DNA from: Syntrophales bacterium
Lineage (GTDB): Bacteria > Desulfobacterota > Syntrophia > Syntrophales > PHBD01
Direction of reading: 5' to 3'
Length of the DNA: 64,000 nucleotides
Assembly (NCBI GenBank): GCA_963668175.1
Contig: OY764159.1
Location: 4,128,001-4,192,000 of the forward strand
Positions 30,021 through 46,134 of this stretch are shown piece after piece. The position numbers and the translations under genes were made by a program. The notes under the pieces are model-generated. The model worked only from the letters and a program-made list of their open reading frames with translations. It was not told the origin of the DNA and did not search any database. Within the stretch, counting starts at the first letter, position 1; each line of letters starts with the position of its first letter.

Positions 30021-30093
30021 AAAACGGCCGCCAGGCGCAACGGATATACGCGGTCGCGGAAATAATAATCCATTAATAAGCAGGAGGTACCTC

Positions 30094-30573
30094 ATGAGTG
30101 TTTTTTCAGCCAGTGACATCGTCGAATTTGCCGTCCGCATTGAAGAAAACGGCGCGAACTTTTACAAATACGCCGTCCAGCTTCTCAAAGACGAGGAAGC
30201 CAAGGGCATCTTTTCCCGTCTGGCCGATGAAGAACTGAATCACAAAAGGACTTTTGAAAAAATATTTGCCGTTATCGAAAAAGAGACGCCCCCCGAAAGT
30301 TATACCGGCGAGTATGCCGCTTATCTCCATAACTATGTCGACAACAACATCATTTTCAACAAGGCGAAGATCGACACGGAAGTCGCGGCCGTCAAGGACA
30401 CCATCTCCGCCCTCGATTTCGCTATCCGAAGGGAGCTGGATTCCATCGCCTACTACAACGAGATCAAGGGCATCGTTCCGGCTGCCCATCATGGCCCCGT
30501 CGATCTCATCGTCACCGAAGAGCGGAAACATTTCATGATCCTGACCGGCTTGAAGACAAAATTCAGCAAATAA
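30094..30573 (+). CDS. Ferritin/rubrerythrin-like di-iron protein
   Basis: AVRIEENG..FY, EELNH, AIRRE..SIAYY, EERKH. Confidence 0.85.
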   Translation: MSVFSASDIVEFAVRIEENGANFYKYAVQLLKDEEAKGIFSRLADEELNHKRTFEKIFAVIEKETPPESYTGEYAAYLHNYVDNNIIFNKAKIDTEVAAVKDTISALDFAIRRELDSIAYYNEIKGIVPAAHHGPVDLIVTEERKHFMILTGLKTKFSK

Positions 30574-30585
30574 GGGGCTTGTCCT

Positions 30586-31932
30586 ATGGCAAACCGGGTC
30601 AACGACGACCATGTATTCTACAGGAATCCGACCAAGTACTACCCTCCGGCCGTCAAGGGCGACGGCGTCTATATCTATGACAACGAGGGAAAGACCTATA
30701 TCGACGGTTCCGGCGGGGCCGTCGTTTCCGCCATCGGTCACGGCGTGAATGACATCCGGGAGGCCATGATCCAACAGCTGGGCCAGATCGACTTCACGCA
30801 CGGCACACAGTTCACGTCGAAGGCGGCGGCGGCGCTTGCGGCAAATCTCGTCCGGATCGCCCCGGCTTCCCTGGAACGGGTCTATTTCCTCTCCGGCGGC
30901 TCCGAAGCGGTGGAGACGGCCGTCAAGATGGCCCGCCAATACCAGGTGGACCGTGGCATGCCTTTGAAGTACAAGGTCATCTCGCGGTGGACCAGTTATC
31001 ACGGCAATACACTCGGGGCGTTGGCCCTGGGGGGCCATACCGGCAGGCGGCGTTATTACCAGCCCCTGATCCAGCATACGCCCCACATCGTCCCGGCTTA
31101 TTGCTACCGCTGTCCGTTCGGTCTCGATCCGGAGAAATGCTGCCTCGAATGTGCCGACGACCTGGAAAAAACGATCCTCTACGAAGGCCCCGACTCCGTG
31201 TCGGCTTTCATCCTGGAACCCGTCGTCGGCGCGACGGCGGGGGCGCTCGTGCCCAGGGACGGCTACATGCAAAGAATCCGCGAGATATGCAACCGCTACG
31301 ACGTCCTCCTGATTGCCGACGAGGTCATGACCGGCATCGGCAGGACTGGCAAAAATTTTGCCGTCGACCACTGGAACACCGTTCCCGATATGATCGCCTG
31401 CGCCAAGGGTCTGGGTGCGGGATACTATCCGGTATTCTGCGTCATCACGACGGAGGTTGTACACAAGGCCATCCGGGAGGGAAACGGCCACTTCGTTCAC
31501 GGCCACACTTACAGCCAGAATCCTCTGGCCTGCGCCACAGGGGACGCTGTTCTCGCCTACGTGGAGAAGCACGACCTGGTGAACCGCAGTGCGGCCATGG
31601 GGAAGTACCTGCTTGATAAACTCCGTGTTCTCGAAAGACACGCAATCGTCGGAGATGTCCGCGGCCTGGGTCTCTTCGCCGGTGTGGAGTTCGTCAAGGA
31701 TCGGGCCACCAAGGAACCGTTCGATCCCAAGATGAAGATGAACGCCCTGATCGGCAACCGGGCCTTCGCCAAGGGACTCATTTCATATCCCGGCGGCGGC
31801 GGCGCCGACGGCATCCGGGGCGACCATATCCTCCTTGCCCCTCCCTTCATCATCACCGAGGAGCAGATCGATGCCCTCGTCGGTATCCTCGACGAATCCA
31901 TCGGCGAGATTACAAAGGAGCAGGGGCTGTAA
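30586..31932 (+). CDS. Class III PLP aminotransferase
   Basis: SGGSEAVETA, SYHGNT, LEPVVG, ADEVMTGIGRTG, AKG (PLP Lys), HGHTY. Confidence 0.92.
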   Translation: MANRVNDDHVFYRNPTKYYPPAVKGDGVYIYDNEGKTYIDGSGGAVVSAIGHGVNDIREAMIQQLGQIDFTHGTQFTSKAAAALAANLVRIAPASLERVYFLSGGSEAVETAVKMARQYQVDRGMPLKYKVISRWTSYHGNTLGALALGGHTGRRRYYQPLIQHTPHIVPAYCYRCPFGLDPEKCCLECADDLEKTILYEGPDSVSAFILEPVVGATAGALVPRDGYMQRIREICNRYDVLLIADEVMTGIGRTGKNFAVDHWNTVPDMIACAKGLGAGYYPVFCVITTEVVHKAIREGNGHFVHGHTYSQNPLACATGDAVLAYVEKHDLVNRSAAMGKYLLDKLRVLERHAIVGDVRGLGLFAGVEFVKDRATKEPFDPKMKMNALIGNRAFAKGLISYPGGGGADGIRGDHILLAPPFIITEEQIDALVGILDESIGEITKEQGL

Positions 31933-31934
31933 AC

Positions 31935-32777
31935 ATGGACAAGGTGATCATTACGGCGGCAATCACCGGCAGCCGCATGACGCGGGATATCGCCCCCCAT
32001 ATCCCCATTACCCCGGAAGAGATCGCTCAATCGGCCGTTGAAGCCTGGCGGGCAGGGGCCTCCATCGTCCACATCCACGTCCGGGACCCGGAAACGGGCC
32101 TCGGGACGCAGGACCTCAACCGATTCAGACAGGTCGTGGATATCCTGCGCAAAAAGACCGACCTCATCCTGAGCCTGACGACCAGCGGCATTCCGGGCCG
32201 CAATCTGCCGGTCGCCGAACGTCTGGCACCGCTCAAACTGAAGCCGGAATTGGCATCCTTCGACGCCGGATCAATCAACCTGGGCGGCGGGGTCTTCGTC
32301 AACGACCCGGCCTTTCTCGACGAGGCCGCCCGGATGATGAAAGAGGCCGGCGTCAAACCCGAGATCGAAATCTTCGACCTGGGGATGGTCGTCACAACCC
32401 TCAGGATGCGGGACGAGGGAAAGCTGTCCGATCCGCTCCATTTTCAGTTTGTCCTGGGTACCCCCTGGGGGGCTCCGGCCACGCCCAAAGCGTTTCTCCA
32501 CCTTCTGGAACATATTCCCGACGACGCCACGTGGTCGAATATCGGAATCGGGCGGGGGTATCTGCCGATGGCCATGATGGCCCTTATCATGGGGGGACAT
32601 ATCCGCGTCGGCATGGAGGACAACATCTACCTCGACAAGGGCGTCCTGGCCAAAAGCAACGCCGAACTGGTGGAACGCGTCATACGGATCGTCCGCGCCT
32701 ACGGACGCGACGTCGCCTCTCCCGAAGAAGCCCGGCTTATTCTCGGCATTCGCACGAAAACAAAGGAAAACGTATGA
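31935..32777 (+). CDS. Beta-keto acid cleavage enzyme (BKACE / Kce family, DUF849)
   Basis: IITAAITG, HIPITPEEIA, HIHVRD, KPEIEIFD, HIRVGMEDN. Confidence 0.92.
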   Translation: MDKVIITAAITGSRMTRDIAPHIPITPEEIAQSAVEAWRAGASIVHIHVRDPETGLGTQDLNRFRQVVDILRKKTDLILSLTTSGIPGRNLPVAERLAPLKLKPELASFDAGSINLGGGVFVNDPAFLDEAARMMKEAGVKPEIEIFDLGMVVTTLRMRDEGKLSDPLHFQFVLGTPWGAPATPKAFLHLLEHIPDDATWSNIGIGRGYLPMAMMALIMGGHIRVGMEDNIYLDKGVLAKSNAELVERVIRIVRAYGRDVASPEEARLILGIRTKTKENV

Positions 32778-33847
32778 ATATGAAACCGAAGTTCCTGGCC
32801 ACGGGAGTCGGCAGCATGCCTTTTGACGATCCCGGCCATGGAATCGACCTGTTAATGGAGGCGCTGCCCGACGCCCCCTTCTGGCCTCAACTGCCGAAAA
32901 AGGGGCTTCACGAGCAGATGGAAATCCAGTTCTGCGAGGGGATGCCCAGGGCAGTCATTGACGAGGGGAAGAACCGGCTTTATTTCGATACGTCGGGAGA
33001 CTATTCGGAGGAACTTGCCGATTTCTACGGGACCTACATGGCGGCGATGGACCCCGACGAAGGCAACGGCGACTGTTCAGCCCTGGCCATCGGCCCGTCC
33101 TTTTCCTCGGGTATTTATGCACTGGATGAGCGCCTCCGGCAGATGAACAGGAAACTGCCGTTTCTCAAGGTCCAGGTCACGGGACCTTGCACATTCTCTC
33201 TGACCGTCAACGACGAGAATAGGCGAGCCGTCTATTACAACGATGCATTCCGGGATGTGGTCCTCAAGGCCCTGGCCATGAAATGCCGGTGGCAAATCCA
33301 GAAATTCAAGCCTTACGCGGATCATGTCATTTGCTTCATCGACGAGCCGATTCTTTCCGCCTTCGGAAGTTCCACCTATGTTTCCGTCAAGAGGGAAGAC
33401 GTCGTCGCCCTTCTCGCCGAAATGATCGGCGCCGTCCACGCCGACGGCGGTATCGCCGGCATCCACTGCTGCGGCAACACGGAGTGGAGCATTCTCATCG
33501 ATGCCGGCGTCGACATCGTGAATTTCGATGCCTTCCAGTATGGCGAAACCGTCGCCATGTACCCGGCCCACATCAAGAATCATCTTGAACGCGGGGGCAT
33601 GCTGGCCTGGGGTGTTGTGCCGACCTCCGCAGCGATCGGCGAGCAGACGTTAGAAGGGCTTGCGGAACGTCTCGAAGGCGTGATGGCGCACCTCGCGACC
33701 AAGGGAACCGAAAAGAGATTGATCGCCGAACAGGCCTTGATTACGCCTTCTTGCGGGACGGGTTCCATGTCGCCGGCAGACGCGGAACGGGTCTTCCGCC
33801 TGACGGGGGAACTCTCCCGGGAAATGAAACGCCGGTACGGATTCTGA
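32774..33847 (+). CDS. Core (single-domain) cobalamin-independent methionine synthase, MesB-like
   Basis: ATG 32774 overlaps the BKACE stop. TGVGSMP, WPQLP, KVQVTGP, FIDEP, Zn ligands GIHCCG and ITPSCG. 357 aa, with no N-terminal folate-binding half of MetE. Confidence 0.78.
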   Translation: MNMKPKFLATGVGSMPFDDPGHGIDLLMEALPDAPFWPQLPKKGLHEQMEIQFCEGMPRAVIDEGKNRLYFDTSGDYSEELADFYGTYMAAMDPDEGNGDCSALAIGPSFSSGIYALDERLRQMNRKLPFLKVQVTGPCTFSLTVNDENRRAVYYNDAFRDVVLKALAMKCRWQIQKFKPYADHVICFIDEPILSAFGSSTYVSVKREDVVALLAEMIGAVHADGGIAGIHCCGNTEWSILIDAGVDIVNFDAFQYGETVAMYPAHIKNHLERGGMLAWGVVPTSAAIGEQTLEGLAERLEGVMAHLATKGTEKRLIAEQALITPSCGTGSMSPADAERVFRLTGELSREMKRRYGF

Positions 33848-34020
33848 TCACCGGCCATACCCCCGACCTGTGACGATTCAAAGGCGGGACAGAGGCAAGA
33901 TATCCCGGCTTCCGGCAGATTATTTCTCCCGGAATGGATGAAGACCGGAAAAGGCCGCCGACCGCAAAAACGGAAGGCTTGATGAAGGAACCGAACTAAA
34001 ACAGGAAAAGACTTTTCACC

Positions 34021-34788
34021 ATGAGTTACATCATCGCCATAACGGGCAAAGGAGGCGTCGGGAAAACGACGGTTTCCGCCGTTATGATCTCCCGCATGAT
34101 CGCCCGCGGCTGCCGCCCCATCCTGGCCATCGATGCCGATCCCAATACCAATCTCGACGCCGCCCTCGGCATAGAGATAGCAAAAACCATCGGCGGAATT
34201 CGCGAGGAAGCCAAGCATTACGCCAACATGGGAATGGCGTCGGGTATCGACAAGAAGAGACTCCTGGACATGAAGATCGCCGAAAGTCTCGTCGAAAGCC
34301 GCGATTTCGATATGCTGGCCATGGGCCGGTCCGAAGGGGCGGGGTGTTACTGTTATGCCAACAACATCCTCAAAGACGCCATCCAGCAGCTGGCAGCCCA
34401 GTATCCCTACGTCATCCTCGATAATGAGGCCGGGCTCGAGAATCTTTCGCGCCGCATAATCCAGTCTGTCGATCTCATGATGATGGTCACGGACCCTTCG
34501 GTCAGGGGTATGGATACGGTCAGGCGTCTTCACGGCCTGACGGCAGAGATGGGAATCGTTTATAAGAATCTGGCCGTGGTTATCAACCGATTAAGACGGG
34601 ATGAGCTTCCGGGTCACGCCGATGCCCTGATCCGCGACATTAACGCCGGATTTGTCCTTGCTCTGCCGGACGACGACGATATCGGCCGTCGCTCCGAGGA
34701 AGGGATCAGTCTTGCCGATTTGGCGGCTGACAATCCCATCGTATCGAGAATCGACCACCTCCTCGACCGCTTAAGTCTGTCCGGTTAG
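34021..34788 (+). CDS. cooC: CO dehydrogenase/ACS nickel-insertion ATPase
   Basis: GKGGVGKT, DADPN, GCYC, DNEAGLENLSR. Confidence 0.9.
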   Translation: MSYIIAITGKGGVGKTTVSAVMISRMIARGCRPILAIDADPNTNLDAALGIEIAKTIGGIREEAKHYANMGMASGIDKKRLLDMKIAESLVESRDFDMLAMGRSEGAGCYCYANNILKDAIQQLAAQYPYVILDNEAGLENLSRRIIQSVDLMMMVTDPSVRGMDTVRRLHGLTAEMGIVYKNLAVVINRLRRDELPGHADALIRDINAGFVLALPDDDDIGRRSEEGISLADLAADNPIVSRIDHLLDRLSLSG

Positions 34789-34800
34789 AAAACAGCAGAA

Positions 34801-35457
34801 CTACTGCCGGGGATATCCGATCGTCTGGGCAAGGATGATCCGCTGGTCGTCCCTTAACATCATGGCTTTTCCCAAGACCACCCTGTCGATATTGCCCCTC
34901 ACGACCGTCGCCAATCCTTCGGAAGCACAGTAGAGATAGACGTTCTGGCTGACAAAACCCGTATCCGTGGCGGAGTAGAAATCCTTTTCCTCGGGAGTCG
35001 CTTTTCCCATTCTGGCCAGATCGGCCACATAAATCAGATTGACGGGGGCTTCCTTGACGTAAGGCTGGCTTCCGGTAACACCCCTGATATCCTGTTTGAG
35101 CAACATCTTCAGGCTATGGGTGGCGGCATCGTAAAGGTAAAGGCCGTCTGCGGTTGCGACATAGATATCGATCTCCTGCCAGTTGTTCGCCGAAGGTGCC
35201 GTTCTCCCGTTCGTCTGCGGACGGTTCACGCCGCAAGCAGCCCAAAGGATATTCGACAAAACGCGGATGGGCAGCTTTTTAGGGCTGAAATTCCGAGACG
35301 TTTTCCTGTCTTTCAACACCTGCATCAACATGCGGCTGCTGTCCATCTGGGGCTTGAGGAGTTTAATCGTCTTCAAATCCTGGGCTAAAGCAACTGCAGG
35401 GAAGAGCAGGAGAATAACCGCGACAAATTTTGCCGTTAGGCAACATCTGATAAACAT
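34801..35457 (-). CDS. SagB-type nitroreductase family protein with predicted signal peptide
   Basis: RKTSRNFS, LWAACG, RTAPSA, DTGFVSQNVYL, IGYP; GGAGG RBS before ATG 35457. Confidence 0.85.
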   Translation of the reverse strand: MFIRCCLTAKFVAVILLLFPAVALAQDLKTIKLLKPQMDSSRMLMQVLKDRKTSRNFSPKKLPIRVLSNILWAACGVNRPQTNGRTAPSANNWQEIDIYVATADGLYLYDAATHSLKMLLKQDIRGVTGSQPYVKEAPVNLIYVADLARMGKATPEEKDFYSATDTGFVSQNVYLYCASEGLATVVRGNIDRVVLGKAMMLRDDQRIILAQTIGYPRQ

Positions 35458-36005
35458 TTTGCGTCCCCCTCCTGTTTCATCAAAATTCATACGGACACGC
35501 ATCTGACCGATACACTTTAACAGTTTAAAAATCAAGCATATTTCAGTACCGCCAACGACCCCGGCGGCCGCATCGCTCTGTAACCGTACGCCGCGCGACA
35601 CCGAAAACTTGGCCATGGTAAGATTAAACCGCCGCCGGACCCAAGCAAGCCGGGTGCCTTTCGGGTATGAACCGGGCACACACAAGGACTCGCCGCGAAC
35701 GGCTGTTTAAATATCTTGACGGCATGACCGGTATCATATATCAGAACACCTAATCGTTTGTAACCGCTGCCTTAAAGGTTCTCTGAGATGGGAACTCCCG
35801 GGCGGCGGGCGGCGGCGACGCCTGATCGTGCGCCCGCCGGTATTTTCCATTTTTATTCAGAGATTGTATAATTTCATGATGGCATCCCTCGTTTTCGGCC
35901 TGAAGCCCCACGGCCGTCCGGCCTTCCCGGGGATTAACATAGAGATCGGTCCCGTGTGCAGACCGTTGCGTCGCAGGAAGAGAGCGGACCGATGAACATT
36001 TTCCG

Positions 36006-37964
36006 ATGAAAGACATGAACCCAAGAAAAATGGACCCTAAAGAACGGCTCTGGGACCCGGCATCCATAGAAACCCTGGTCAAAGCCGAACGGGAAGGCCT
36101 GGAAACCTGTTTTTCCCGGATGGATAATCAGGGGAGCACCTGCACATTTGGAAAGAACGGCCTCTGTTGCCGCATCTGCTACATGGGGCCGTGCCGGATT
36201 ACGAAAAAGGCCCCCCGCGGCGTTTGCGGGGCCGATGCCGATACGATTGTCGCCAGGAACCTCCTGCGGGAAGTGGCCGGAGGTACAGCCGCCCATTCCG
36301 ATCACGGCCGCCATCTGGTATTGCTTCTGAAGAAGACCGCCGAAGGAAGGTCCGGGGATTACACGATAAAAGACGAAAAGGCTCTCCGTCAGGCGGCAAG
36401 ATGGTACGGAATTGCCGAAGAAGGCCGCAGTAAAGAGACCGTCGCCCTGGAACTGGCGAGTATCTTTCTTCAGGAATTCATGAAGCAGGAAGAATCGCCC
36501 GCGACCGTGAGCCTTGCTCCGGCAAAACAGCAGACGATCTGGCAGAACCACGGCCTTACACCCGCCGGTCTCGATCGGACCGTCGTGGAATCGATCCACC
36601 GTACCCACATGGGCGTCGACCATGAATACCGTAATCTGCTCCTCCAGGCATTCCGTACGGCCCTGGCCGACGGGTGGGGAGGCTCCCGGATAGCGACCAT
36701 CTGCTCCGACATTCTGTTCGGTACACCCTCTCCTGTCCGCAGCGACGCCAACCTGGGGGTCCTCAACACAGAAACCGTCAATATCGTCGTCCACGGGCAT
36801 GAACCGGAGCTGTCGGAATTGCTGGCCATCGCATCCAGGGACCCCGAAATGACCGCCTATGCCCGCATTGCAGGTGCCGAAGGCATCACCCTCGCTGGAA
36901 TCTGCTGCACGGCCAATGAAATCCTCATGAGGCACGGCATTCCCGTGGCGGGAAGTTTTCTCCAGCAGGAATTGGCCATCGTCACCGGCGCGGTGGAAAT
37001 GATGCTCATCGACGTCCAGTGCTGTATGCCCAGCTTGCCCGAGATCGCAGCGGCCTACCATACGGAGATCGTCTCCACGACGGAAATGGCCAAGACGGCA
37101 GGAGCCTCCTTCATTACGCTCGACGAACACGAACCATTGAAATCCGCGAAGATGCTCATCAAGAGGGCCATCGACCGCTATAAGCTCCGCGACCCGAACA
37201 AGGTCGCCATTCCGGCGGTTAAAAAGCCCCTGGTAGCCGGATTCAGCGTCGATGCCATCAAATACATGCTGGGAGGCAGCTTCCGGGCATCCTTCCGTCC
37301 CCTGAACGACGCCGTCATCCAGGGACGCATAAGAGGTATCGCCGCAATCGTCGGCTGCAACAACCCCCGGTCGAGGGTGGATGAGTACATCAATATCCTC
37401 ACCCGTCAACTGATCGGCCGGGACATCCTCGTCCTCAAGACCGGCTGCGCGGCCATCGCTTCCGCCAAGGAAGGGATGCTCACTCCGGAAGCGGCGCTGG
37501 AGGCGGCGGGAAGCGGGCTGAAAGAGGTCTGCGAGGCGGTGGGCATGCCCCCCGTCCTGCACATGGGAAGCTGCGTCGACAACTCCCGGATTCTGGAAGC
37601 CGCAACGGAGATCGTCCGCGAAGGCGGGCTGGGAGACGATTTGTCCCAGATACCCGCCGTCGGCATCGCCCCCGAATGGATGAGCGAAAAGGCCGTGGCC
37701 ATAGGCTGTTACTTCGTCGCATCGGGGATCGACGTCATCCTGGGACATCCGTTCCATATAGGCGGTTCCGAAAAGGTCACCCGCTTCCTGAACAAGGAGG
37801 CCAGGACCCTGTTCGGGGCCTCCTTCCACGTCTGCGAAGAACCGGAAAAAGCAGCAGATGCGGTCGTCAAGATCATCGATAATGCAAGGGAACGTTTGGG
37901 CATTCATCGACAGGCCTCCCGGAAGCTCTTCGACATGGAAGACCGGAGGATGCTCGATGTCTAA
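36006..37964 (+). CDS. cooS: Anaerobic Ni-Fe carbon monoxide dehydrogenase catalytic subunit
   Basis: CTFGKNGLCCRICYMGPC, HSDH, HGHEP, GICCT, DVQC, GCNN, GSCVDN, SEKA. Start may be 36015 or 36030. Confidence 0.95.
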   Translation: MKDMNPRKMDPKERLWDPASIETLVKAEREGLETCFSRMDNQGSTCTFGKNGLCCRICYMGPCRITKKAPRGVCGADADTIVARNLLREVAGGTAAHSDHGRHLVLLLKKTAEGRSGDYTIKDEKALRQAARWYGIAEEGRSKETVALELASIFLQEFMKQEESPATVSLAPAKQQTIWQNHGLTPAGLDRTVVESIHRTHMGVDHEYRNLLLQAFRTALADGWGGSRIATICSDILFGTPSPVRSDANLGVLNTETVNIVVHGHEPELSELLAIASRDPEMTAYARIAGAEGITLAGICCTANEILMRHGIPVAGSFLQQELAIVTGAVEMMLIDVQCCMPSLPEIAAAYHTEIVSTTEMAKTAGASFITLDEHEPLKSAKMLIKRAIDRYKLRDPNKVAIPAVKKPLVAGFSVDAIKYMLGGSFRASFRPLNDAVIQGRIRGIAAIVGCNNPRSRVDEYINILTRQLIGRDILVLKTGCAAIASAKEGMLTPEAALEAAGSGLKEVCEAVGMPPVLHMGSCVDNSRILEAATEIVREGGLGDDLSQIPAVGIAPEWMSEKAVAIGCYFVASGIDVILGHPFHIGGSEKVTRFLNKEARTLFGASFHVCEEPEKAADAVVKIIDNARERLGIHRQASRKLFDMEDRRMLDV

Positions 37965-40900
37965 GATCATCTGTTCAAGCGCCATCGACGGCGGCATCGC
38001 CTGGATCGCCCGCGCGGAAGAATTCCTGGATCGGGCCGTCCGGCAAAAAGGAGAAGGGGCCGTCGTCGCCTTTCCGGACAGCGCCTACTTCCTTCCCGTC
38101 ATTTATTCCTTCACCGGCGAAAAGGTACGTACCTTAAGCGATCTGCGCAGGCTCCTGCGCTATGCAAAGACCCTGCTTCCTCCCCGGCCCACGGATCGCG
38201 TCTGGCTGCCGTACCTGGGAAACGCCCTCGATGCGGGCGTCGCCTCCCTCTTTGCCTGCGAAATCATCGAGGCCTGCAAGTACCTCATCGGCCCCAACCC
38301 GATAGACGGCATATGGCTGGGTGCGGCGAGCGATGTCATTATGCGCGAACGGGGCATTGAATTCGTCGACGGTACGGCACCCGGCTTTGCCGCCATTACC
38401 GGCGCCGCCCCCACGAACGAAATCGCCGTTTCGATAGCCCGTGCGCTCCAGGAGAAGAACCTTTATGTGTTCATGGCGGGCCCGTCGGGGGGGCGCCAGT
38501 TCGCCGAACAACTCGCGGAGGAAGGCGTTCAACTCGGCTGGGAAACGCGCCTTGTGCCTTTCGGCCGCGACGTCTCCGCCCTGATCTACGCCCTCGGCTT
38601 CGCGAACCGGGTGGCCCTTTCCTTCGGAGGAGTGCAGGCAGGAGATTTCGAACGCAATTTGAAGTACAACAAAAACCGCATATTCGCTTTTGTTCTGGCC
38701 TTCGGTGAAGTAACGCCGGACAAATACGCCCTGGCCGCCGGCGCCATCAACTACGGATTCCCGGTCATCGCCGATACGGACATCCCCCAAATCCTCCCCA
38801 CGGGCGTCTGCACATACGAGCACGTGGTTTCAAACGTCCCCTACGAAAGCATGGTGGAGAAGGCCCTTGAAGTCCGGGGATGTAAGATCAAGATCACCAA
38901 GGTGCCTATCCCTGTTCCCTACGGCTCCGCCTTCGAGGGCGAACGCATCCGCAAGAGCGACGTCCACGCCGAATTCGGCGGCGGCATGACGACGGCCTTC
39001 GAATTCGTCACCATGGCGGACATGGACGAGATTGCAGACAACACCATCGACATCATCGGTCCCGACATCGACGCCGTCGAGCCGGGAACCGTGCTGCCCC
39101 TCTGCATCTGGGTGGAAGTGGCCGGACGCAAAATGCAGTCCGATTTCGAACCGATCCTGGAGCGCCAGATCCACCACCTCGTCAACGGTGCAGAAGGGAT
39201 ATGGCATATGGGGCAGCGGGACATCGTCTGGACGCGTATCTCCAGGAGCGGATACGCCAAGGGCCTGCGCCTGAGACATTACGGAAACATCATTTACGCG
39301 AAATTCGTCTCGGATTATCCGGCCATCGTCGACAAGGTGAAGATCACCCTGATCACCGACGCAGCAGAGGTCGAAAGAAGAGTGACCCACGCCCGCAGGG
39401 TTTACGACGAACGCAACCGCCGCCTGGAATCGATGACGGACGAATCGGTGGACACTTTTTACTCGTGTCTGCTCTGCCAGTCCTTCGCCCCCAACCACGT
39501 CTGCATGATCACCCCGGAGCGCCTGGGGCTTTGCGGAGCCTACAACTGGCTCGACGGAAAGGCCGCCTACGAGATCAACGAAACGGGCGCCAATCAACCG
39601 GTCGCCAAAGGGACCTGCATCGATCCCGTCAAGGGCATCTGGGAAGGGGTCAACGATTATGTGCGTATGGCCAGCCACAAGGCGATCTCTTGCTATTCGG
39701 CCTATTCGATCATGGACAGGCCGATGACGAGCTGCGGCTGCTTCGAGGCCATCTGCGCCTACCTCCCCGAATGCAACGGCGTCATGGTCGTGAGCCGGGA
39801 ATTCAGCGGCGACACCCCGATCGGCATGACCTTCTCCACGCTGGCGGGCAGCGTCGGCGGGGGCCATCAGACGCCCGGATTCATCGGCGTCGGCAAGGTG
39901 TTTCTCACGTCGAGAAAATTCCTCTACGCCGAAGGCGGACACCGGCGGCTCGTCTGGATGCCGAAGGCCCTCAAGGAAGCCCTGGCCTACGATCTCAAAA
40001 AACGGTTTGAAGAACAGGGATGTCCCGATCTCTGGGACAAGATCGCCGATGAAACAGTGGCCATCGACGCCCATCAGGTAAGGGCGTTCATGGACCGGGT
40101 CCAACATCCTGCCCTGGCCATGGCCGATATGCAGTCTCTTGCGGAAGAATCTCCCCGTGCTGCAACGGCGGCGCCGACGATCGCCGACACCGTCCCGGCA
40201 CCCGACAAGAAGGCGGGAGAAGTCGGCGCCGGCTCTGTGAAGCCTGACGACATCGTCCGGATGAAAGAAGAAATAACTGCCGACATCCTGAGCAAGCTGA
40301 AGTCCTCCCTCGCGGGCGAGATCATGGCGGGCGTAATGGCGGCGCTGGGTTCGAAGCCCCGGGATGAAAGCGAGAAAATAGCCCCAGCCGCTCCTGCATC
40401 GGATGTACCTTCACGGGAACATTTTTATGTATCGGCGGTGAATCGTATCGACGCCGTGACGGCATTTCCGGTACGCCGCGAGACATACGGAACGGCGATT
40501 CAGGAGGTCACGCTCGGTGCCGCTCCGGAATCCGGCGGTACCAGGGCAAAGACGGTCACGGTGGGAGGCTCGACATGCATGCCCTTCCACTTCTGGGAAG
40601 GCCGAATGCCGCATCGCCCGGTCATCGCGATGGAGGTCTTCGACAGGATCAGCGAAAAATACCCTCCTGTTCTCAGGGAATGTTACGGCGGTCTCCTCAA
40701 CGATCCTCCGGCCATGGCGCGGGCCTGCGTGGAGAAATACGGTGCCGATCTCATCAGCGTCCGCCTCGACGGCACACACCCCGACCGCGGCAATTATTCA
40801 CCCGAAAAGGCCGTGGAACTGGTGAAAGCGGTTCTCGGCGCCGTGGATGTGCCGCTCATCGTCACCGGACACAGCCACTACGACCGCAACAACGAAGTCA

Positions 40901-41433
40901 TGAAGGCCGTCGCCCAGACCTGTGCCGGAGAGGGTCTTCTCCTCAACTGGCTGGAGCAGGACAACTACCGGACCATAGCGGGGGCGGCTATCGCCTACGG
41001 ACATGCCGTCGTCGCCCAGAGCCCCATCGACGTGAATATCGGCAAGCAGTTGAACATCCTCCTCACGGGCATGGATATGCAGCCCGGCCGGATCGTCATG
41101 GACCCGATGACCGGCGCCGTCGGATACGGCATCGAATACACGTATTCCGTCATGGAAAGGATCAGGCTCACGGCTCTCGGCGGCGACCCGATGCTCGCCT
41201 GCCCGCTGATCGTCTCTCCCGGGCAGGAATGTGCCAAGATCAAGGAATCGAGGGCGTCGGAAGCCGATTTCCCGGCCTGGGGGAATCTGGCCAAACGCGC
41301 GGCGGTTTGGGAATTGGCGACGGCGCTGGGCCTTCTCTACGCAGGTGCCGATATCCTGATCATGTATAACCCTGAAGCGGCCGGAGCTCTGAAGCGGACG
41401 ATCATGCGGTTGATGGAAGGCGGCGGCCAATAA
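37957..41433 (+). CDS. acsB: Acetyl-CoA synthase (AcsB) fused to the corrinoid Fe-S protein small subunit (AcsD), 1158 aa
   Basis: GGAGG RBS and ATG 37957. AcsB motifs CLLCQSFAPNHVC, GLCGA, TSCGCFE end at HPAL (~40115). After a linker come AcsD motifs IQEVTLG..GGTR..VTVGG, IAMEVFD, SPIDVNIGKQLN, MDPMTG..GYGIEYTYSVMERIR. No internal stop. Confidence 0.9.
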   Translation: MSKIICSSAIDGGIAWIARAEEFLDRAVRQKGEGAVVAFPDSAYFLPVIYSFTGEKVRTLSDLRRLLRYAKTLLPPRPTDRVWLPYLGNALDAGVASLFACEIIEACKYLIGPNPIDGIWLGAASDVIMRERGIEFVDGTAPGFAAITGAAPTNEIAVSIARALQEKNLYVFMAGPSGGRQFAEQLAEEGVQLGWETRLVPFGRDVSALIYALGFANRVALSFGGVQAGDFERNLKYNKNRIFAFVLAFGEVTPDKYALAAGAINYGFPVIADTDIPQILPTGVCTYEHVVSNVPYESMVEKALEVRGCKIKITKVPIPVPYGSAFEGERIRKSDVHAEFGGGMTTAFEFVTMADMDEIADNTIDIIGPDIDAVEPGTVLPLCIWVEVAGRKMQSDFEPILERQIHHLVNGAEGIWHMGQRDIVWTRISRSGYAKGLRLRHYGNIIYAKFVSDYPAIVDKVKITLITDAAEVERRVTHARRVYDERNRRLESMTDESVDTFYSCLLCQSFAPNHVCMITPERLGLCGAYNWLDGKAAYEINETGANQPVAKGTCIDPVKGIWEGVNDYVRMASHKAISCYSAYSIMDRPMTSCGCFEAICAYLPECNGVMVVSREFSGDTPIGMTFSTLAGSVGGGHQTPGFIGVGKVFLTSRKFLYAEGGHRRLVWMPKALKEALAYDLKKRFEEQGCPDLWDKIADETVAIDAHQVRAFMDRVQHPALAMADMQSLAEESPRAATAAPTIADTVPAPDKKAGEVGAGSVKPDDIVRMKEEITADILSKLKSSLAGEIMAGVMAALGSKPRDESEKIAPAAPASDVPSREHFYVSAVNRIDAVTAFPVRRETYGTAIQEVTLGAAPESGGTRAKTVTVGGSTCMPFHFWEGRMPHRPVIAMEVFDRISEKYPPVLRECYGGLLNDPPAMARACVEKYGADLISVRLDGTHPDRGNYSPEKAVELVKAVLGAVDVPLIVTGHSHYDRNNEVMKAVAQTCAGEGLLLNWLEQDNYRTIAGAAIAYGHAVVAQSPIDVNIGKQLNILLTGMDMQPGRIVMDPMTGAVGYGIEYTYSVMERIRLTALGGDPMLACPLIVSPGQECAKIKESRASEADFPAWGNLAKRAAVWELATALGLLYAGADILIMYNPEAAGALKRTIMRLMEGGGQ

Positions 41434-41506
41434 CGGATCAGATCTATATTCCGGGACCTTGCTTTAGCAGAAAGGTACTGTATACGATGACAGCAGGACG
41501 TTTTTA

Positions 41507-42853
41507 ATGGCATTGACAGGACTTCAGATACAGAAACTTCTTCCCAAGACCAACTGCCGGGAGTGCGGCTCCAATACGTGCATGGCGTTCGCCATGAGGC
41601 TTGCCGCCAGGAAGGCCGACCTCTCCCTCTGTCCGTATGCATCCGACGAGGCGAAGGCCATTCTGGGCGCCGCGGCCGAGCCGCCGGTGCGGGAGATCGG
41701 CTTGGGCGTCGACGGCGCCCTGCGGACAGGCGGCGAAACGGTCCTGTACCGGCATGAAAAAACCTTCGTCCACCGGACCATCTTCGCCGTCAATATCGAC
41801 GACACGACAAACGATGAACAGATTGACGCCACGCTGAAAGCCTTGAAGGGATACGCCCTCGATAGAGTGGGCGAAACCTTCAAGCTTGATATGATTTCCC
41901 TGACCCAAGCAGCGAAGGATGCCCCGGCCTTCATCGAACTCGCCCGCCGCGCCGCCGCCGTGACGGAACTGCCGCTCGTGATCCGCAGCAAGGACCCGCA
42001 TCTCCTTGCCGAAGTCTCGGCGGCGTTAAAGGGAACTACCTGCGTCCTCTCCGCTGCAACGCCTGACACCGCCGCCATACTCGGGACGTCGGCCAAGGAA
42101 AACGGCCATGTCCTTGCCGTCACGGCTTCCGATATCAATGCGATGACGGCCTGTGTAAAGAACCTCAGGGATACGGGCCATACCGATCTGCTTCTCCAGT
42201 TTCAATCCTCCAACGTGGCCGAACAGTTCCAGACCAACACGGTCGTGCGAAGGGCAGCCCTCATGGACGGTGTCAAACCGATGGGCTATCCCTTCCTTCG
42301 CTTCATCGACCCTGCCGGAGATACCCTCGATATCGCCGCCGAAACGGCAACGGAAATCCTGAAATACGGAGGCATTTGCGTTCTGCCATCCTTCGATCCG
42401 GCCATAATCGCCGCCTTCATGACATTGAGGCTCAATATCTTCACCGATCCTCAGAAACCGATCCAGGTGGAGCCCAAGATATACGCCATCGGCGAGCCGG
42501 ATACCGAATCGCCCGTCTTCGTAACGACCAACTTCGCCCTCACCTATTTCATCGTCTCCGGCGAACTTGAGAACTGCGGCATCGGAAGCTGGCTTGCCGT
42601 CCCGGACTGCGACGGCATGAGCGTTCTTACGGCCTGGGCGGCAGGAAAATTTTCCGGCGCAACCGTGGCCAAGTTCATCAAGGAATCGGGACTGGAAGAC
42701 AGCGTTAAAACCAGGACCGTCACCATACCGGGCTATGTGTCGGTCATCAGCGGAGAGATCGAAGAAAACCTCCCGGGCTGGAAGGTCCTCATCGGCCCGC
42801 CGGATGCATCCGACCTGGACGGCTATGTCAAAGTGATGCTCGGTAAACCCTAA
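41507..42853 (+). CDS. acsC: Corrinoid iron-sulfur protein large subunit
   Basis: LPKTNCRECGSNTCMAFA...CP, GGETVLYRHEK, TDPQKP, TTNFALTY, SVLTAWAAGKF. Confidence 0.94.
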   Translation: MALTGLQIQKLLPKTNCRECGSNTCMAFAMRLAARKADLSLCPYASDEAKAILGAAAEPPVREIGLGVDGALRTGGETVLYRHEKTFVHRTIFAVNIDDTTNDEQIDATLKALKGYALDRVGETFKLDMISLTQAAKDAPAFIELARRAAAVTELPLVIRSKDPHLLAEVSAALKGTTCVLSAATPDTAAILGTSAKENGHVLAVTASDINAMTACVKNLRDTGHTDLLLQFQSSNVAEQFQTNTVVRRAALMDGVKPMGYPFLRFIDPAGDTLDIAAETATEILKYGGICVLPSFDPAIIAAFMTLRLNIFTDPQKPIQVEPKIYAIGEPDTESPVFVTTNFALTYFIVSGELENCGIGSWLAVPDCDGMSVLTAWAAGKFSGATVAKFIKESGLEDSVKTRTVTIPGYVSVISGEIEENLPGWKVLIGPPDASDLDGYVKVMLGKP

Positions 42854-42868
42854 CCCGGACTTTACAGC

Positions 42869-44764
42869 ATGCCGCGGATAACCTTTCATCCTCTTGGAGC
42901 GACCGTCGAGGCGCCATCCGGCCTGGAATTGCGCGATGCCGCAAAACGGGCGGGCATCGAGTTGGACTTTCCCTGCGGCGGCCAGGGGACATGCGGCCGG
43001 TGCGCTGCGCGCGTCCTATCCGGCCGTCTAGACGTCATAGAGACAGCCATCTCGGCCGACACCGTTCCTGATGAAGGATCTATCCTCGCCTGCCGGGCAA
43101 AGATCGGCGATGAAGACGCCGTTGTCGAAGTACGCGAGCAGCCGGATTTGTCAGCCGGTCAGTTCATCGACGAAGAGGAAGAAGCCTCGTTCATACCGCC
43201 TGGATGGCAGGAGCAACCCACCGACCAGGGAGCCCTCGTCTCGACTTATCTCATTGATGTGCCTCCACCGCAGGAGGGAGAAGGCGCCTCGGACTTGGAG
43301 CGTTTGTATACGTCTCTGCGGCGAAATCCGGAGGAGCCTGCCTTCGATTACAGCCTGCATGCGCTGCGCGAGCTGGCGGGCGCCCTTCGCTGCCGAAACG
43401 GGAAGGCGATGGCTGCGGCCGGGCGCTTCGGTGAGCGCCGGCGCCTCGTCCATCTGGAAGCGGGCGGCGACCTCCGTTCTCTTTACGGCATCGCCGTGGA
43501 CCTTGGCACGACCACGGTGGCCGTCAACCTGGTTTCTATTCCCGAAAACCGCATCATCGCGTCACGGACGGAATACAACGGCCAGGTCGTCTGCGGCCTC
43601 GACATCATCAGCCGGATCAATTACGCCGGTCGACCGGAAAGACTGGAAGAACTGCGCCTGAGAGCCCTCAAGACGATCAACGGCTTGATCGGGCAACTAG
43701 CCGCTGCCGTCGCACCGGCCCGGAATCGGATATACGGCTGCGCCCTTTCCGGCAACACGACAATGATCCATCTCTTGCTGGGCATGAATCCCGAGTATAT
43801 CCGTCTTGCCCCCTACACGCCGACCGTTCTGGACGTGCCGCCGCTTCGGGCAGGCGATATCGGCCTCGACATCCACCCGGAAGGCCCCGTCTTCATATCC
43901 CCGGCCGTCGGCAGTTACGTCGGCGGCGATATCACCGCCGGTCTTCTCTGCACAGGCTCCGCCTTCACGAGCGACGAGATATGCCTTTTTATGGATATCG
44001 GCACCAACGGCGAAATCGTCTTGGGAAACGGCGATTTCCTCATGGCCTGCGCCTGTTCCGCAGGGCCGGCATTCGAAGGCGGCGGCATCGGAAACGGCAT
44101 GAGGGCCGCCGGCGGGGCCATCGACCGGGTGCAGATCGATCGGGAAACGGGGCAGGCGACTTATCGCACCATCGGTGATTTGCCCCCGCGCGGCATCTGC
44201 GGCTCCGGAATGCTGTCACTCCTGGCCGGCCTTTTCACGGGAGGATGGCTCGATGCGTCCGGTCGTTTCAAACGGCCGAGTTCTTCATCTTTTATCGACT
44301 TCAAAGGCAGACTGGGGATTTATACCGTTGTTCCCTGGGAGAAGAACGCGATCACCGTGACGGAGCGGGACATCGAAAATCTCATCCGCGCCAAGGCGGC
44401 GCTATATGCGGCCTGCGGCCTGCTCACGAAACAGGCGGGGATCGGATTTCAGAACATAGCAAAGGTATTCATCGCCGGCGGATTCGGGAGGTACCTGGAC
44501 ATTGAAGACGCCGTTACGATAGGATTGTTGCCGGATATCCCCCGGGACCGCTTCCATTACCTGGGGAATGCGTCGCTTAAGGGCAGCACGATGATCCTGC
44601 TTTCGGAAGAACACCGGAGGCTGCAACAGGGGTTCGTGAAACGCATGACCTATGTGGAACTCAACACGGACTCCGAATACATGGATCAATACACGGGGGC
44701 TCTTTTTCTGCCCCACACGGACCGCCGCCAGTTCCCTTCGCTGAAAAACCGGCTGGCGGATTGA
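42869..44764 (+). CDS. acsV: ATP-dependent reductive activator of corrinoid proteins (RACo/AcsV; 2Fe-2S + ASKHA)
   Basis: CGGQGTCGRC...LAC, DLGTTT, GNTTM, YVGGD, DIGTNGE, AGPAFEG, GICGSG, AGGFG, GNAS. Confidence 0.9.
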   Translation: MPRITFHPLGATVEAPSGLELRDAAKRAGIELDFPCGGQGTCGRCAARVLSGRLDVIETAISADTVPDEGSILACRAKIGDEDAVVEVREQPDLSAGQFIDEEEEASFIPPGWQEQPTDQGALVSTYLIDVPPPQEGEGASDLERLYTSLRRNPEEPAFDYSLHALRELAGALRCRNGKAMAAAGRFGERRRLVHLEAGGDLRSLYGIAVDLGTTTVAVNLVSIPENRIIASRTEYNGQVVCGLDIISRINYAGRPERLEELRLRALKTINGLIGQLAAAVAPARNRIYGCALSGNTTMIHLLLGMNPEYIRLAPYTPTVLDVPPLRAGDIGLDIHPEGPVFISPAVGSYVGGDITAGLLCTGSAFTSDEICLFMDIGTNGEIVLGNGDFLMACACSAGPAFEGGGIGNGMRAAGGAIDRVQIDRETGQATYRTIGDLPPRGICGSGMLSLLAGLFTGGWLDASGRFKRPSSSSFIDFKGRLGIYTVVPWEKNAITVTERDIENLIRAKAALYAACGLLTKQAGIGFQNIAKVFIAGGFGRYLDIEDAVTIGLLPDIPRDRFHYLGNASLKGSTMILLSEEHRRLQQGFVKRMTYVELNTDSEYMDQYTGALFLPHTDRRQFPSLKNRLAD

Positions 44765-44769
44765 CGGCC

Positions 44770-46134
44770 TCAATGCTTCAGGCCGTATTTCTTCAGCTTG
44801 TAGCGAAGCATCCTTTCGCTGATGCCGAGAAGTTCCGCGGCCTTGGTCTGGTGGTATCCCGTCTTTTCCATGGCCTCGACGATCAGCCGCTTCTCCAGGT
44901 CTTCGATGGACTCCTTGAGCATCCCTTCTTCCTTTCTGCCCGATTCTCCGTGATCGAACGCATCTTCGCCGAAAGGCAGATCCTCGATGGAAATTACCGA
45001 CTCACGGGCAATCACGACGGCCCGTTCGATGATGTTTTCCAATTCGCGGACATTGCCCGGATAATCGTATTTCAACAGGAGATCCTGGGCCTCGCGGCTG
45101 AAACCTGCTATGTCCTTGCCGTTGTCCGCCGCATAGCGTTTGATGAAATGATCGATAAGCACCGGGATGTCCTCTTTCCTCTCCCGCAGCGGCGGCATGG
45201 CCATAACGACCACATTCAGCCGGTAGAAGAGGTCTTCGCGGAAATCGCCGGCCTTGACCCTCGCTTCCAGATCGCGATTGGTGGCGCTGATGATGCGCAC
45301 GTCGGAGCGGATGGTTTGGTTGCCGCCCACCCGCTGAAACTCACGTTCCTGCAAAAAGCGAAGGAGTTTGACCTGGACCGATTGCGATAATTCGCCGATT
45401 TCGTCGAGGAAAAGGGTCCCGCCGTCGGCCTCTTCAAAACGGCCGATGCGCCGTGCCGTGGCCCCGGTAAAGGACCCTTTCTCATGACCGAAGAGTTCGC
45501 TCTCCAGAAGATTTTCATGCAAGGCGCTGCAGTTGACGGAGATGATGGGCCGCTGCGACCGCGGGCTCAAATGATGGATGAGCTTCGCCATCAGTTCCTT
45601 GCCCGTACCGCTTTCCCCCTGGATGAGTATCGTCGCCCGGCTGGCGGCGACACGTCCGGCCATGTTGATCAGGGCGCTCATTTTCGGACTCCGGAAAATG
45701 ATCTGATCGGTCGTCACTCCTTTTTCCCTGAGTTCCTGTCGAAGCAGTTCATTCTCCCTGATCAGGGTGCGCCGCTCAGATACGCGATCCACCAACAATA
45801 GCAGTTCGTCGAATTCGATGGGCTTGGTAATATAGTCTATGGCTCCTGATTTCATGGCTTCGACAGCCGTCTCGATCGTTCCGAAAGCTGTAATGATCAC
45901 GACGTCGATCTCGGCATTGATCCCCTTGACCGCCTTGAGGACATCCATACCGCTCAGGCCCGGCATCTTGTAGTCGAGCAGGATCAAATCGTAATGGCCG
46001 CTCCGGACCAGTTGCACGCCCTTTTCGCCGTTTTCAGCCTCGGAAACCGAGTGGCCCTCCTTGATAAGGAAATCTCTTAACATTTCCCGCTGGGACTGCC
46101 CGTCTTCCACAATCAGGATGTTCAATTTTTTCAT
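44770..46134 (-). CDS. Sigma54-dependent response regulator (NtrC/AtoC/ZraR family)
   Basis: REC domain; GESGTGKE, ESELFGHEKGSFTGA, FLDEIGE, FREDLFYRLNV, PGNVREL; Fis-type HTH. Confidence 0.95.
   Translation of the reverse strand: MKKLNILIVEDGQSQREMLRDFLIKEGHSVSEAENGEKGVQLVRSGHYDLILLDYKMPGLSGMDVLKAVKGINAEIDVVIITAFGTIETAVEAMKSGAIDYITKPIEFDELLLLVDRVSERRTLIRENELLRQELREKGVTTDQIIFRSPKMSALINMAGRVAASRATILIQGESGTGKELMAKLIHHLSPRSQRPIISVNCSALHENLLESELFGHEKGSFTGATARRIGRFEEADGGTLFLDEIGELSQSVQVKLLRFLQEREFQRVGGNQTIRSDVRIISATNRDLEARVKAGDFREDLFYRLNVVVMAMPPLRERKEDIPVLIDHFIKRYAADNGKDIAGFSREAQDLLLKYDYPGNVRELENIIERAVVIARESVISIEDLPFGEDAFDHGESGRKEEGMLKESIEDLEKRLIVEAMEKTGYHQTKAAELLGISERMLRYKLKKYGLKH

Follow-up and report, generated by a model that had tools for sequence, protein, structure and literature searches.

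A fused AcsB–AcsD gene in a Syntrophales CODH/ACS cluster: a covalent tether between acetyl-CoA synthase and its corrinoid protein, with a possible role in methionine synthesis

The 64,000-nucleotide stretch of Syntrophales DNA analysed here (the window) carries an open reading frame in which acetyl-CoA synthase (AcsB) is joined to the small subunit of the corrinoid iron-sulphur protein (CFeSP; AcsD), raising the questions of whether the gene is truly a fusion and what a synthase attached to its own methyl carrier would do. The acsB-acsD gene occupies 37957..41433 on the forward strand and encodes a protein of 1158 residues and 126 kDa according to translation, domain and profile searches; as the first-pass annotation had stated, translation of this interval meets no internal stop. 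The same frame opens further upstream in the ORF listing, at an ATG at 37858, but 37957 is the likely start, since most aligned homologues begin there, a GGAGG precedes it by 7 nt, and its ATG and the stop codon of cooS overlap.

A search of the single-contig 4.57-Mb genome by tblastn found no second acsB or acsD, in agreement with the earlier remark that a separate acsD is missing. The linker had been marked for a check on hidden stops or frameshifts, and Logan contigs from three runs of one sample, possibly the source of the assembly and so not independent support, span 39800-40800 with no substitutions and no indels. Independent support comes from other assemblies, as separately assembled Logan and JGI data hold fused proteins 84–91% identical to that of the window, and a search for the same fusion in relatives, also proposed at the outset, found it at 64 of 80 related genome loci. 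That a sequencing or assembly error merged two genes, a reading whose sole support is that the assembly is a single record, is refuted by the independent assemblies, which include fused orthologues in six other genomes of the same order, and by the unchanged contigs across the linker, and we assign it practically no weight. We consider it confirmed that the AcsB-AcsD fusion is real and is one intact gene. A separate start for AcsD inside the linker is likewise rejected: there is no conserved Met before AcsD, just 31 of 179 linkers having one in their last 40 residues, and there without a fixed position.

The AcsB part (residues 1-725; 37957..40131, forward strand) reads by profile, domain and ligand criteria as a bacterial three-domain acetyl-CoA synthase. 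It exceeds the cut-offs of NF040764 (1027 bits; cut-off 800) and NF007078 (1009; cut-off 809) over its whole length, including the A1 domain, with a CODH_A_N domain at residues 22-110 of the fusion protein and PDB ACS chains aligning to residues 8-724. All A-cluster ligands, which we take to be four Fe-S cysteines plus Cys-Gly-Cys, are present: C504, C507, C516, C526, C593, G594 and C595 are invariant in an alignment of 98 homologues, and the three A-cluster motifs on which the first-pass annotation had based its complete bacterial-type AcsB were found. The AcsD part (about residues 836-1158; 40462..41433, forward strand) has the barrel of the CFeSP small subunit, with a TM-score of 0.95 (by target length) to both 4djd_D and 2h9a_B. 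In the profile scan that had been suggested, residues 837-1153 reached 374 bits against NF003376 (cut-off 280), bearing out a full AcsD after the linker; the scores fall under the cut-offs of NF040759 (241 vs 430) and TIGR00381 (228 vs 253). The full-length AlphaFold model (pTM 0.41, low confidence around the A-cluster) is uninformative on domain arrangement. In the cryo-EM structure from Clostridium autoethanogenum (10.1101/2024.08.05.606187) AcsD is the subunit that binds ACS at domains A1 and A3, so the fusion joins known binding partners.

Genes on either side complete the cluster, all on the forward strand. Bacterial CO dehydrogenase is encoded by cooS/acsA (36006..37964; TIGR01702 628 bits, cut-off 478), the stop of which overlaps the start of the fusion. 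As first annotated, acsC for the large (corrinoid and Fe-S) subunit follows (41507..42853; NF003195 485 bits, cut-off 306), and it lies downstream in 48 of the 50 fused loci with enough sequence. Next comes acsV, the reductive activator of corrinoid (RACo), at 42869..44764, with four RACo-type Pfam domains and 572 bits against NF040756, under its cut-off of 800. A CooC-family nickel-insertion ATPase with CbiA/ParA-type matches (34021..34788), whose orthologue lies upstream of cooS in related loci, is likely an ACS maturase of the AcsF type. The genome has a second CODH, and the CooC type beside that enzyme matches this ATPase at only 33%. Operon limits rest on gene spacing, because a promoter and terminator scan of 29800-45000 gave no excess over shuffles (5 vs 5.8 and 19 vs 14.6, respectively).

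The gene at 32774..33847 (forward strand) encodes a 357-residue MesB-like core methionine synthase, consisting of the MetE catalytic barrel without the folate-binding half and recognised from invariant residues, fold matches and linkage to the fusion. Residues H231, C233, D252, C327, S14 and D190 are invariant in 54 homologues; the residue criteria (zinc ligands His-x-Cys, Asp and Cys; substrate-binding Ser and Asp) come from PMC7857596, and correspondence with MetE was by motif rather than structural superposition. The protein was placed by fold search alone (model pLDDT 94.7; 10 best fold matches all MetE, E 1.6e-9), sequence searches against the PDB giving nothing credible, PRK00957 only 24.5 bits and PF01717 no match anywhere in the genome. 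The gene occurs alongside AcsC and AcsD, as expected of MesB, and is found in 45 of the 48 fused loci with at least 5.8 kb of upstream sequence. Orthologues of at least 54% identity occur in all 44 fused genomes and homologues of 31-39% in five of six unfused ones, and in a set of 41 genomes picked for kinship the 29 lacking ACS gave no match. We think it likely that this enzyme is the partner that accepts methyl groups from the tethered CFeSP. The fused loci are also alike in what they lack, an AcsE-like ORF occurring at none of the 64, whereas each of five unfused relatives from the same order carries one adjoining its acs genes. Both the acsE-less cluster and the MesB-like gene were missed in the earlier view of what the assembly is for, and they alter its likely job.

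Docking of AcsD on ACS serves methyl transfer, and the ACS reaction is reversible. On balance we lean towards the proposal that the tethered CODH/ACS/CFeSP module, rather than fixing CO2, breaks down acetyl-CoA and delivers its methyl group, carried by the tethered corrinoid, to the MesB-like enzyme for methionine formation. The chain would stay whole in the cell, with AcsC binding the fused AcsD to give one CFeSP per ACS, and two flexible flanks would let CFeSP swing among ACS, the MesB-like enzyme and the activator AcsV. The A-cluster would split acetyl-CoA and CODH would oxidise the CO to CO2, while methyl-Co(III) would be discharged onto zinc-bound homocysteine; the tether might serve a small anabolic flux by raising the local concentration of the carrier. 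This proposal is supported because the fusion is intact and the sole copy, acsE is missing from fused loci, the MesB-like gene travels with them and Fhs is often not found. Against it, MetH, MetF, FolD and Fhs are present in this genome and provide another methionine route, and of the folate branch only AcsE is missing. A methyl route from acetyl-CoA to methionine has been proposed for Dehalococcoides (PMC7005905, PMC7857596), where direct transfer from CFeSP to MesB is itself a hypothesis.

The same genes are the basis of the strongest alternative, which we judge unlikely though far from negligible: that the fused complex ends an ordinary, full Wood-Ljungdahl pathway, for CO2 fixation or acetate oxidation, in which a substitute for AcsE, for instance the MetH folate domain or an unlinked methyltransferase, brings folate-bound methyl groups to CFeSP while the MesB-like enzyme lies on a side branch. 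Fhs, FolD and MetF are all encoded, but fhs, folD, metF and metH lie far from the acs cluster and from one another. No stand-alone acsE was found in the genome; a PF00809 search picked up FolP and the folate domain within the 805-residue MetH and nothing else, and NF005719, searched across the whole genome, matched only MetH, below cut-off. That folate domain comes close to the cut-off of the AcsE model (236 vs 259), which favours a substitute. MetH fragments can methylate free cobalamin in vitro, a point in the same direction. Also in favour are short AcsE-like ORFs away from the fused locus in 8 of 46 distinct fused genomes (3 over cut-off; two of these beside fhs and metF-like genes) and an fhs near the MesB-like gene in five (G015, G036, G041, G042 and G047). 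Weighing against are the lack of acsE at every fused locus and the distribution of Fhs, which exceeds its cut-off in 26 of 44 fused genomes compared to 6 of 6 unfused ones. Most of the genomes compared are MAGs, so that missing genes may be assembly gaps, and the fused clade has one origin, so that co-occurrence partly reflects inheritance of one cluster and not 44 independent cases. The 18 fused genomes in which no Fhs exceeded the cut-off include a one-chromosome 8.6-Mb assembly (G049) and a 98%-complete one (G027) where none was found, and the module therefore persists without the folate methyl branch.

The fused form is common among uncultured anaerobes and spans many phyla, its loci carrying about 12 phylum labels. 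In a quick tree the fused sequences form one clade (36 rows, SH-aLRT 99), a second fusion (P0126) lies elsewhere, and a partial fusion (P0236) is labelled Anaerolineales. No description of an AcsB-AcsD fusion was found in the literature searched, which did not extend to Adam, Borrel and Gribaldo 2018 (PNAS), the principal survey of the genes concerned. Term searches of PMC13370988, PMC5016858, PMC7005905, PMC7857596, PMC12743542, PMC13737181, PMC7325909, PMC6344411, 10.1101/765248 and 10.1101/2024.08.05.606187 gave no mention of one, PMC5016858 listing a different fusion, MTHFR/AcsD.

Between the two parts lies a linker of about 116 residues (about 40123..40470, forward strand; close to the 115 first estimated), in which a central helix separates two Ala/Pro/Glu-rich flanks. 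This composition, together with pLDDT below 50 at residues 731-763 and 780-824 of the AlphaFold model, suggests that the flanks are a flexible leash. The first-pass annotation had expected the fusion to tether CFeSP in a stable assembly; the covalent tether follows from the sequence, while 'stable' is too strong for flanks of this kind. The helix module (residues 761-805; 40237..40371, forward strand; modelled as helix at 764-795), scored by profile in 179 linkers, has a hydrophobic residue at every fourth position and is a candidate oligomerisation element. It is present at 12 bits or more in 140 of the 179, the best of 1790 shuffles reaching 6.3 bits, and within the sequence set of this analysis its profile matches only fused proteins or their fragments. 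Linkers range from 58 to 221 residues with flank medians of 44 and 39, and length differences among the helices are multiples of 4.

It is improbable, in our estimation, that the fusion is a frozen historical accident within a mobile gene cluster, its linker a mere spacer without kinetic gain and its complex working like the unfused one. A single origin would explain the main clade, and the variable linker length, with a Syntrophales subgroup (linkers of 58-78 residues) that has lost the helix, fits a spacer. Drifting flanks around a four-residue register preserved in those 140 linkers do not; nor do the second fusion and the partial one, or the lack of any clean return to two genes in the main clade, where the four split loci have other frameshifted genes nearby. 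The main-clade and P0126 linkers are not demonstrably homologous, since a profile comparison of the main-clade helix with P0126 gave no match (E 0.83).

Still less probable, and to our minds a minor concern, is that the MesB-like enzyme uses another thiol, or runs in reverse to load CFeSP from a methylated sulphur compound so that the complex builds acetyl-CoA from methyl and CO. Its fold is common to corrinoid:thiol methyltransferases (4ay7 and 4ay8 are among the matches), MetH already covers methionine in this genome, and distant MesB homologues may differ in function according to Price et al. (PMC7857596). Nevertheless, the ten best fold matches are MetE without exception, and the invariant S14 and D190 align by motif with the homocysteine-binding Ser and Asp of that enzyme.

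In comparison with the CODH/ACS of Moorella thermoacetica, Carboxydothermus hydrogenoformans and C. autoethanogenum and their free CFeSP (PDB 1OAO, 7ZKJ, 9FZY, 4DJD), the Syntrophales system shares CooS-type CODH, AcsC, AcsV, a three-domain AcsB whose A-cluster ligands are complete (44-48% identical in Foldseek alignments) and the AcsD barrel (TM 0.93-0.95), but AcsB and AcsD are one chain, each PDB match covering one part only, and the cluster has a MesB-like gene and no acsE. The incomplete Wood-Ljungdahl route of Dehalococcoides mccartyi with its core-MetE or MesB, as PMC7005905 and PMC7857596 describe it, likewise pairs ACS with CFeSP in the absence of AcsE and has a core methionine synthase that needs no folate and binds zinc through His/Cys/Asp/Cys. 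In those accounts CODH, MetF and MetH are all missing from Dehalococcoides, whereas here CODH is in the cluster, MetH and MetF are in the genome, ACS is fused to AcsD and the mesB-like gene is linked to the acs genes.

The archaeal ACDS supercomplex of Methanosarcina (PMC13370988) also has catalytic modules joined by flexible regions (terminal there) and, N-terminal to the small CFeSP barrel, a helix that assembles into a coiled coil of six to eight copies. The Syntrophales parts are of bacterial type (A1 domain present; CooS, with TIGR01702 over cut-off, not CdhAB, with TIGR00314 cdhA at 91 vs 781), and their tether is a covalent one. To build an ACDS-like assembly the chains would have to oligomerise, and the conserved linker helix is a candidate for this. 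Separately from the methionine proposal, and less strongly, we suggest from its pattern that the helix may self-associate. The parallel four-helix tetramerisation domains of TubY (PDB 7C7Y, PMC7762940) and VASP (VASP_tetra, PDB 1USD) are alike in having a hydrophobic residue at every fourth position, a pattern that neither requires common ancestry nor implies an identical oligomer state. Among the Pfam matches of the helix VASP_tetra is the most frequent (14 of 42 members at E up to 1, best 6.5e-4), with no Pfam match for the window's own helix. Against the PDB the linker profile finds TubY best (E 0.0013; 1USD E 3.4). These matches are weak, extending over about 26 of 45 positions, and residues 750-810 have no usable match in the ESM Atlas. 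A bolder idea, possible but on the doubtful side, is that the helix is a TubY/VASP-like parallel tetramerisation domain through which four AcsB-AcsD chains would hold together two CODH dimers and four AcsC in an assembly of about 1 MDa (4 x 244 kDa) or a larger network, a bacterial supercomplex reaching the archaeal ACDS architecture independently by fusion and acting as a mobile machine, spread over a dozen phyla, for making methionine from acetyl-CoA.

The encounter of ACS with CFeSP is a fleeting step of the Wood-Ljungdahl pathway, of which the fusion is a natural covalent version, giving kinetic and cryo-EM work a construct of fixed one-to-one stoichiometry and the engineering of acetogens a template for design. 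Databases call these proteins ACS alone or hypothetical, so that acsD can seem absent, and genomes with this cluster may be scored as CO2-fixing though many are without AcsE and Fhs.

The acsB-acsD fusion is real: window positions 37957-41433 (+) hold 1158 codons in one frame with no internal stop, as the first-pass annotation had described, and an HMM scan places both parts above their cut-offs, residues 1-725 being a bacterial three-domain acetyl-CoA synthase (ACS; NF040764, 1027 bits against a cut-off of 800) and residues 837-1153 the small subunit of the corrinoid Fe-S methyl carrier CFeSP (NF003376, 374 against 280). The A-cluster, whose motifs the annotation had named, has all seven ligand positions invariant among 98 homologues, and the AlphaFold model of the AcsD part aligns with solved AcsD chains at TM 0.93-0.95. 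The source genome is a single contig of 4.57 Mb with a completeness rating of 100%; no second copy of acsB or acsD was found in the whole of it, and the next gene, starting at 41507, is acsC, which bears out the annotation on both counts. Contigs from three runs of one sample, possibly the assembly's own source, span the linker with its sequence unchanged.

The fusion is also widespread. A protein search with residues 600-1158, a query biased toward fused forms, found ACS C-terminal and CdhD Pfam domains together in every one of the best 120 of 2725 matches. At least 604 loci matched; of the 80 best, 64 have AcsB and AcsD sequence within one ORF, 11 terminate too early to be called fused or split, and four are split, each with further frameshifted genes nearby in its locus. 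The remaining locus, L092, differs genuinely in gene order, with acsD upstream. The search of related genomes that the annotation had proposed recovered the fusion in six of 40 relatives, an unfused or archaeal-type ACS in five and no ACS in 29. Record labels assign fused proteins to about 12 phyla, although these are MAG labels and some are apparently unreliable. A quick maximum likelihood tree of 96 ACS catalytic regions contains one clade of 36 rows (SH-aLRT 99; 35 fused proteins and one fragment ending after the linker helix) adjoining the unfused L092. Within the clade, members from the source genome's own order are interspersed with members from other phyla, a pattern suggestive of horizontal spread. 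A second fusion (representative P0126) lies in another clade, and a partial fusion is labelled Anaerolineales. Outside the main fused clade, P0132 (938 aa, from a cluster of three members) has a truncated AcsD-like part almost directly after AcsB. In five representatives of 854-1375 aa (P0133, P0134, P0135, P0140 and P0142) AcsB is C-terminal, following long N-terminal additions, and thus other ACS fusions exist.

Linker length varies between 58 and 221 aa, with a median of 127, across 179 distinct sequences; in most of them a conserved island lies midway in Ala/Pro/Glu-rich sequence. A helix profile seeded on 63 linkers reaches the 12-bit threshold in 140 of the 179, 77 of them outside the seed, against a best score of 6.3 among 1790 shuffles; the window's own copy is diverged and scores 18.1. 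Every fourth position is hydrophobic across about 41 residues of the island, a pattern fixed by the seed motif in its C-terminal part and not in its N-terminal part. The full pattern spans 43, 39, 31 or 27 residues in the 42 linkers where it was measurable (eight others matched a shorter second motif only), so that length differences are always a multiple of four. If the helix were straight, the hydrophobic stripe would wind fully round, so we would expect the segment to supercoil with partners or else kink. The closest PDB match of the profile, weak at E 0.0013, is the TubY C-terminal domain, described in part of PMC7762940 as a parallel four-helix tetramer. Among Pfam families the most frequent match, likewise weak, is to VASP_tetra, hit by 14 of the 42 members with E 6.5e-4 at best and not by the window's own helix. 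The monomer model makes residues 764-795 helical at low confidence, with disordered flanks on either side. The 39 sub-threshold linkers count against an essential role for the helix; among them are a short-linker Syntrophales subgroup that lacks it and an Acidobacteriota subgroup whose module differs. Linkers of the latter type (L062, L065-L068, L072 and L088, mostly labelled Acidobacteriota) are 173-215 aa long, and their conserved hydrophobic module is unmatched by the helix profile. There is a likeness to the archaeal CODH/ACS/CFeSP supercomplex (ACDS), where the CdhD barrel is preceded by a helix as the AcsD part is here by the linker helix; according to passages of PMC13370988, the 2-MDa ACDS is scaffolded by that helix, and no oligomerisation had so far been reported for bacterial CoFeSP. 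Given the weak sequence pattern of the linker helix, which is its basis, a bacterial supercomplex of roughly 1 MDa is a tentative reading.

ACS domains A1 and A3 form the docking site of the small CFeSP subunit in the C. autoethanogenum structure, as described in part of 10.1101/2024.08.05.606187, so the fusion leashes a known binding partner to the A3 end. The cluster runs from a mesB-like core methionine synthase gene (32774-33847) through a cooC-like gene (34021-34788) and cooS (from 36006) to the fusion, acsC and acsV (from 42869). It contains no acsE, the gene for the methyl-THF:CFeSP methyltransferase, and genome-wide the pterin-binding family is represented only by FolP and a domain inside the 805-aa MetH. 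An AcsE-like ORF occurs in none of the 64 fused loci and adjoins the acs genes in five unfused relatives; a short one lies somewhere in all six unfused genomes but in only 8 of the 46 distinct fused ones, which are what remains of 53 searched once the six unfused and one duplicate are set aside and which include one with a frameshifted linker. As AcsE is absent, the MesB-like enzyme is, apart from ACS, the cluster's only predicted discharger of methylated corrinoid. This 357-aa protein has a predicted fold of pLDDT 94.7, the ten best fold matches are all MetE, and it retains the residues given for MesB by Price et al. in the relevant part of PMC7857596, namely the His/Cys/Asp/Cys zinc set plus a Ser and an Asp. 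Its gene lies upstream in 45 of the 48 fused loci that extend far enough. All 44 of 44 fused genomes have an orthologue with 54% identity or more, whereas none was found in the 29 ACS-less genomes of the kinship sample, and Fhs exceeds its cut-off in 26 of the 44, counts that represent one clade rather than independent cases; an MTHFR domain is found in 40 of the 44.

On balance we favour a flow in which the fused ACS would cleave acetyl-CoA, CODH would oxidise the CO and the MesB-like enzyme would methylate homocysteine from the methylated corrinoid; part of PMC7005905 proposes the same acetyl-CoA-to-methionine route for Dehalococcoides. The main rival, a full pathway with AcsE replaced by a substitute, we regard as rather unlikely, and it draws support from the presence of Fhs, FolD, MetF and MetH in the source genome, a MetH folate domain scoring close to the AcsE cut-off, retention of fhs near the cluster in some fused genomes and the AcsE-like genes elsewhere in others. 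The methionine route and the full pathway need not be mutually exclusive across the clade.

Several neighbouring genes were also recorded. Between cooC and cooS the cluster is broken by a gene of the nitroreductase family that reads the other way (34801-35685, -), and a consensus-like sigma-70 site before cooS (35844-35872, +) is within chance expectation. Class III aminotransferase and beta-keto acid cleavage enzyme (BKACE) genes (30586-32777, +) precede the mesB-like gene, whose start codon the BKACE gene overlaps. All three are likewise neighbours of the cluster in G002, a genome of the same family, and in no other compared locus did BKACE or the nitroreductase find a match. BKACE enzymes consume or produce acetyl-CoA, so a lineage-specific link to the cluster is possible. 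Most fused clusters have two CooC-family genes, but only one is present in the window's cluster. Elsewhere in the genome a second CODH operon (L102, G000:C1:2533920-2538469; cooS, ferredoxin-like and flavoprotein reductase genes) adjoins a CooC to which the missing type is on average 47% identical, and this operon may supply it. Genes for a sigma-54 response regulator and its paired sensor kinase (44770-47924, -) converge on the acsV end, and the genome encodes an HgcA mercury-methylation corrinoid protein (L104, G000:C1:2038475-2039632; 451 bits against a cut-off of 275).

All parts of the fusion cluster are already known, and the MesB-CFeSP link has been published as a hypothesis. Full-text literature searches and term look-ups in individual papers returned no description of the AcsB-AcsD fusion or the linker helix; the fusion is apparently undescribed, though an earlier mention is possible. 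Its chemistry is textbook and it is easy to test; the most surprising reading, if true, would be the supercomplex of roughly 1 MDa in bacteria.
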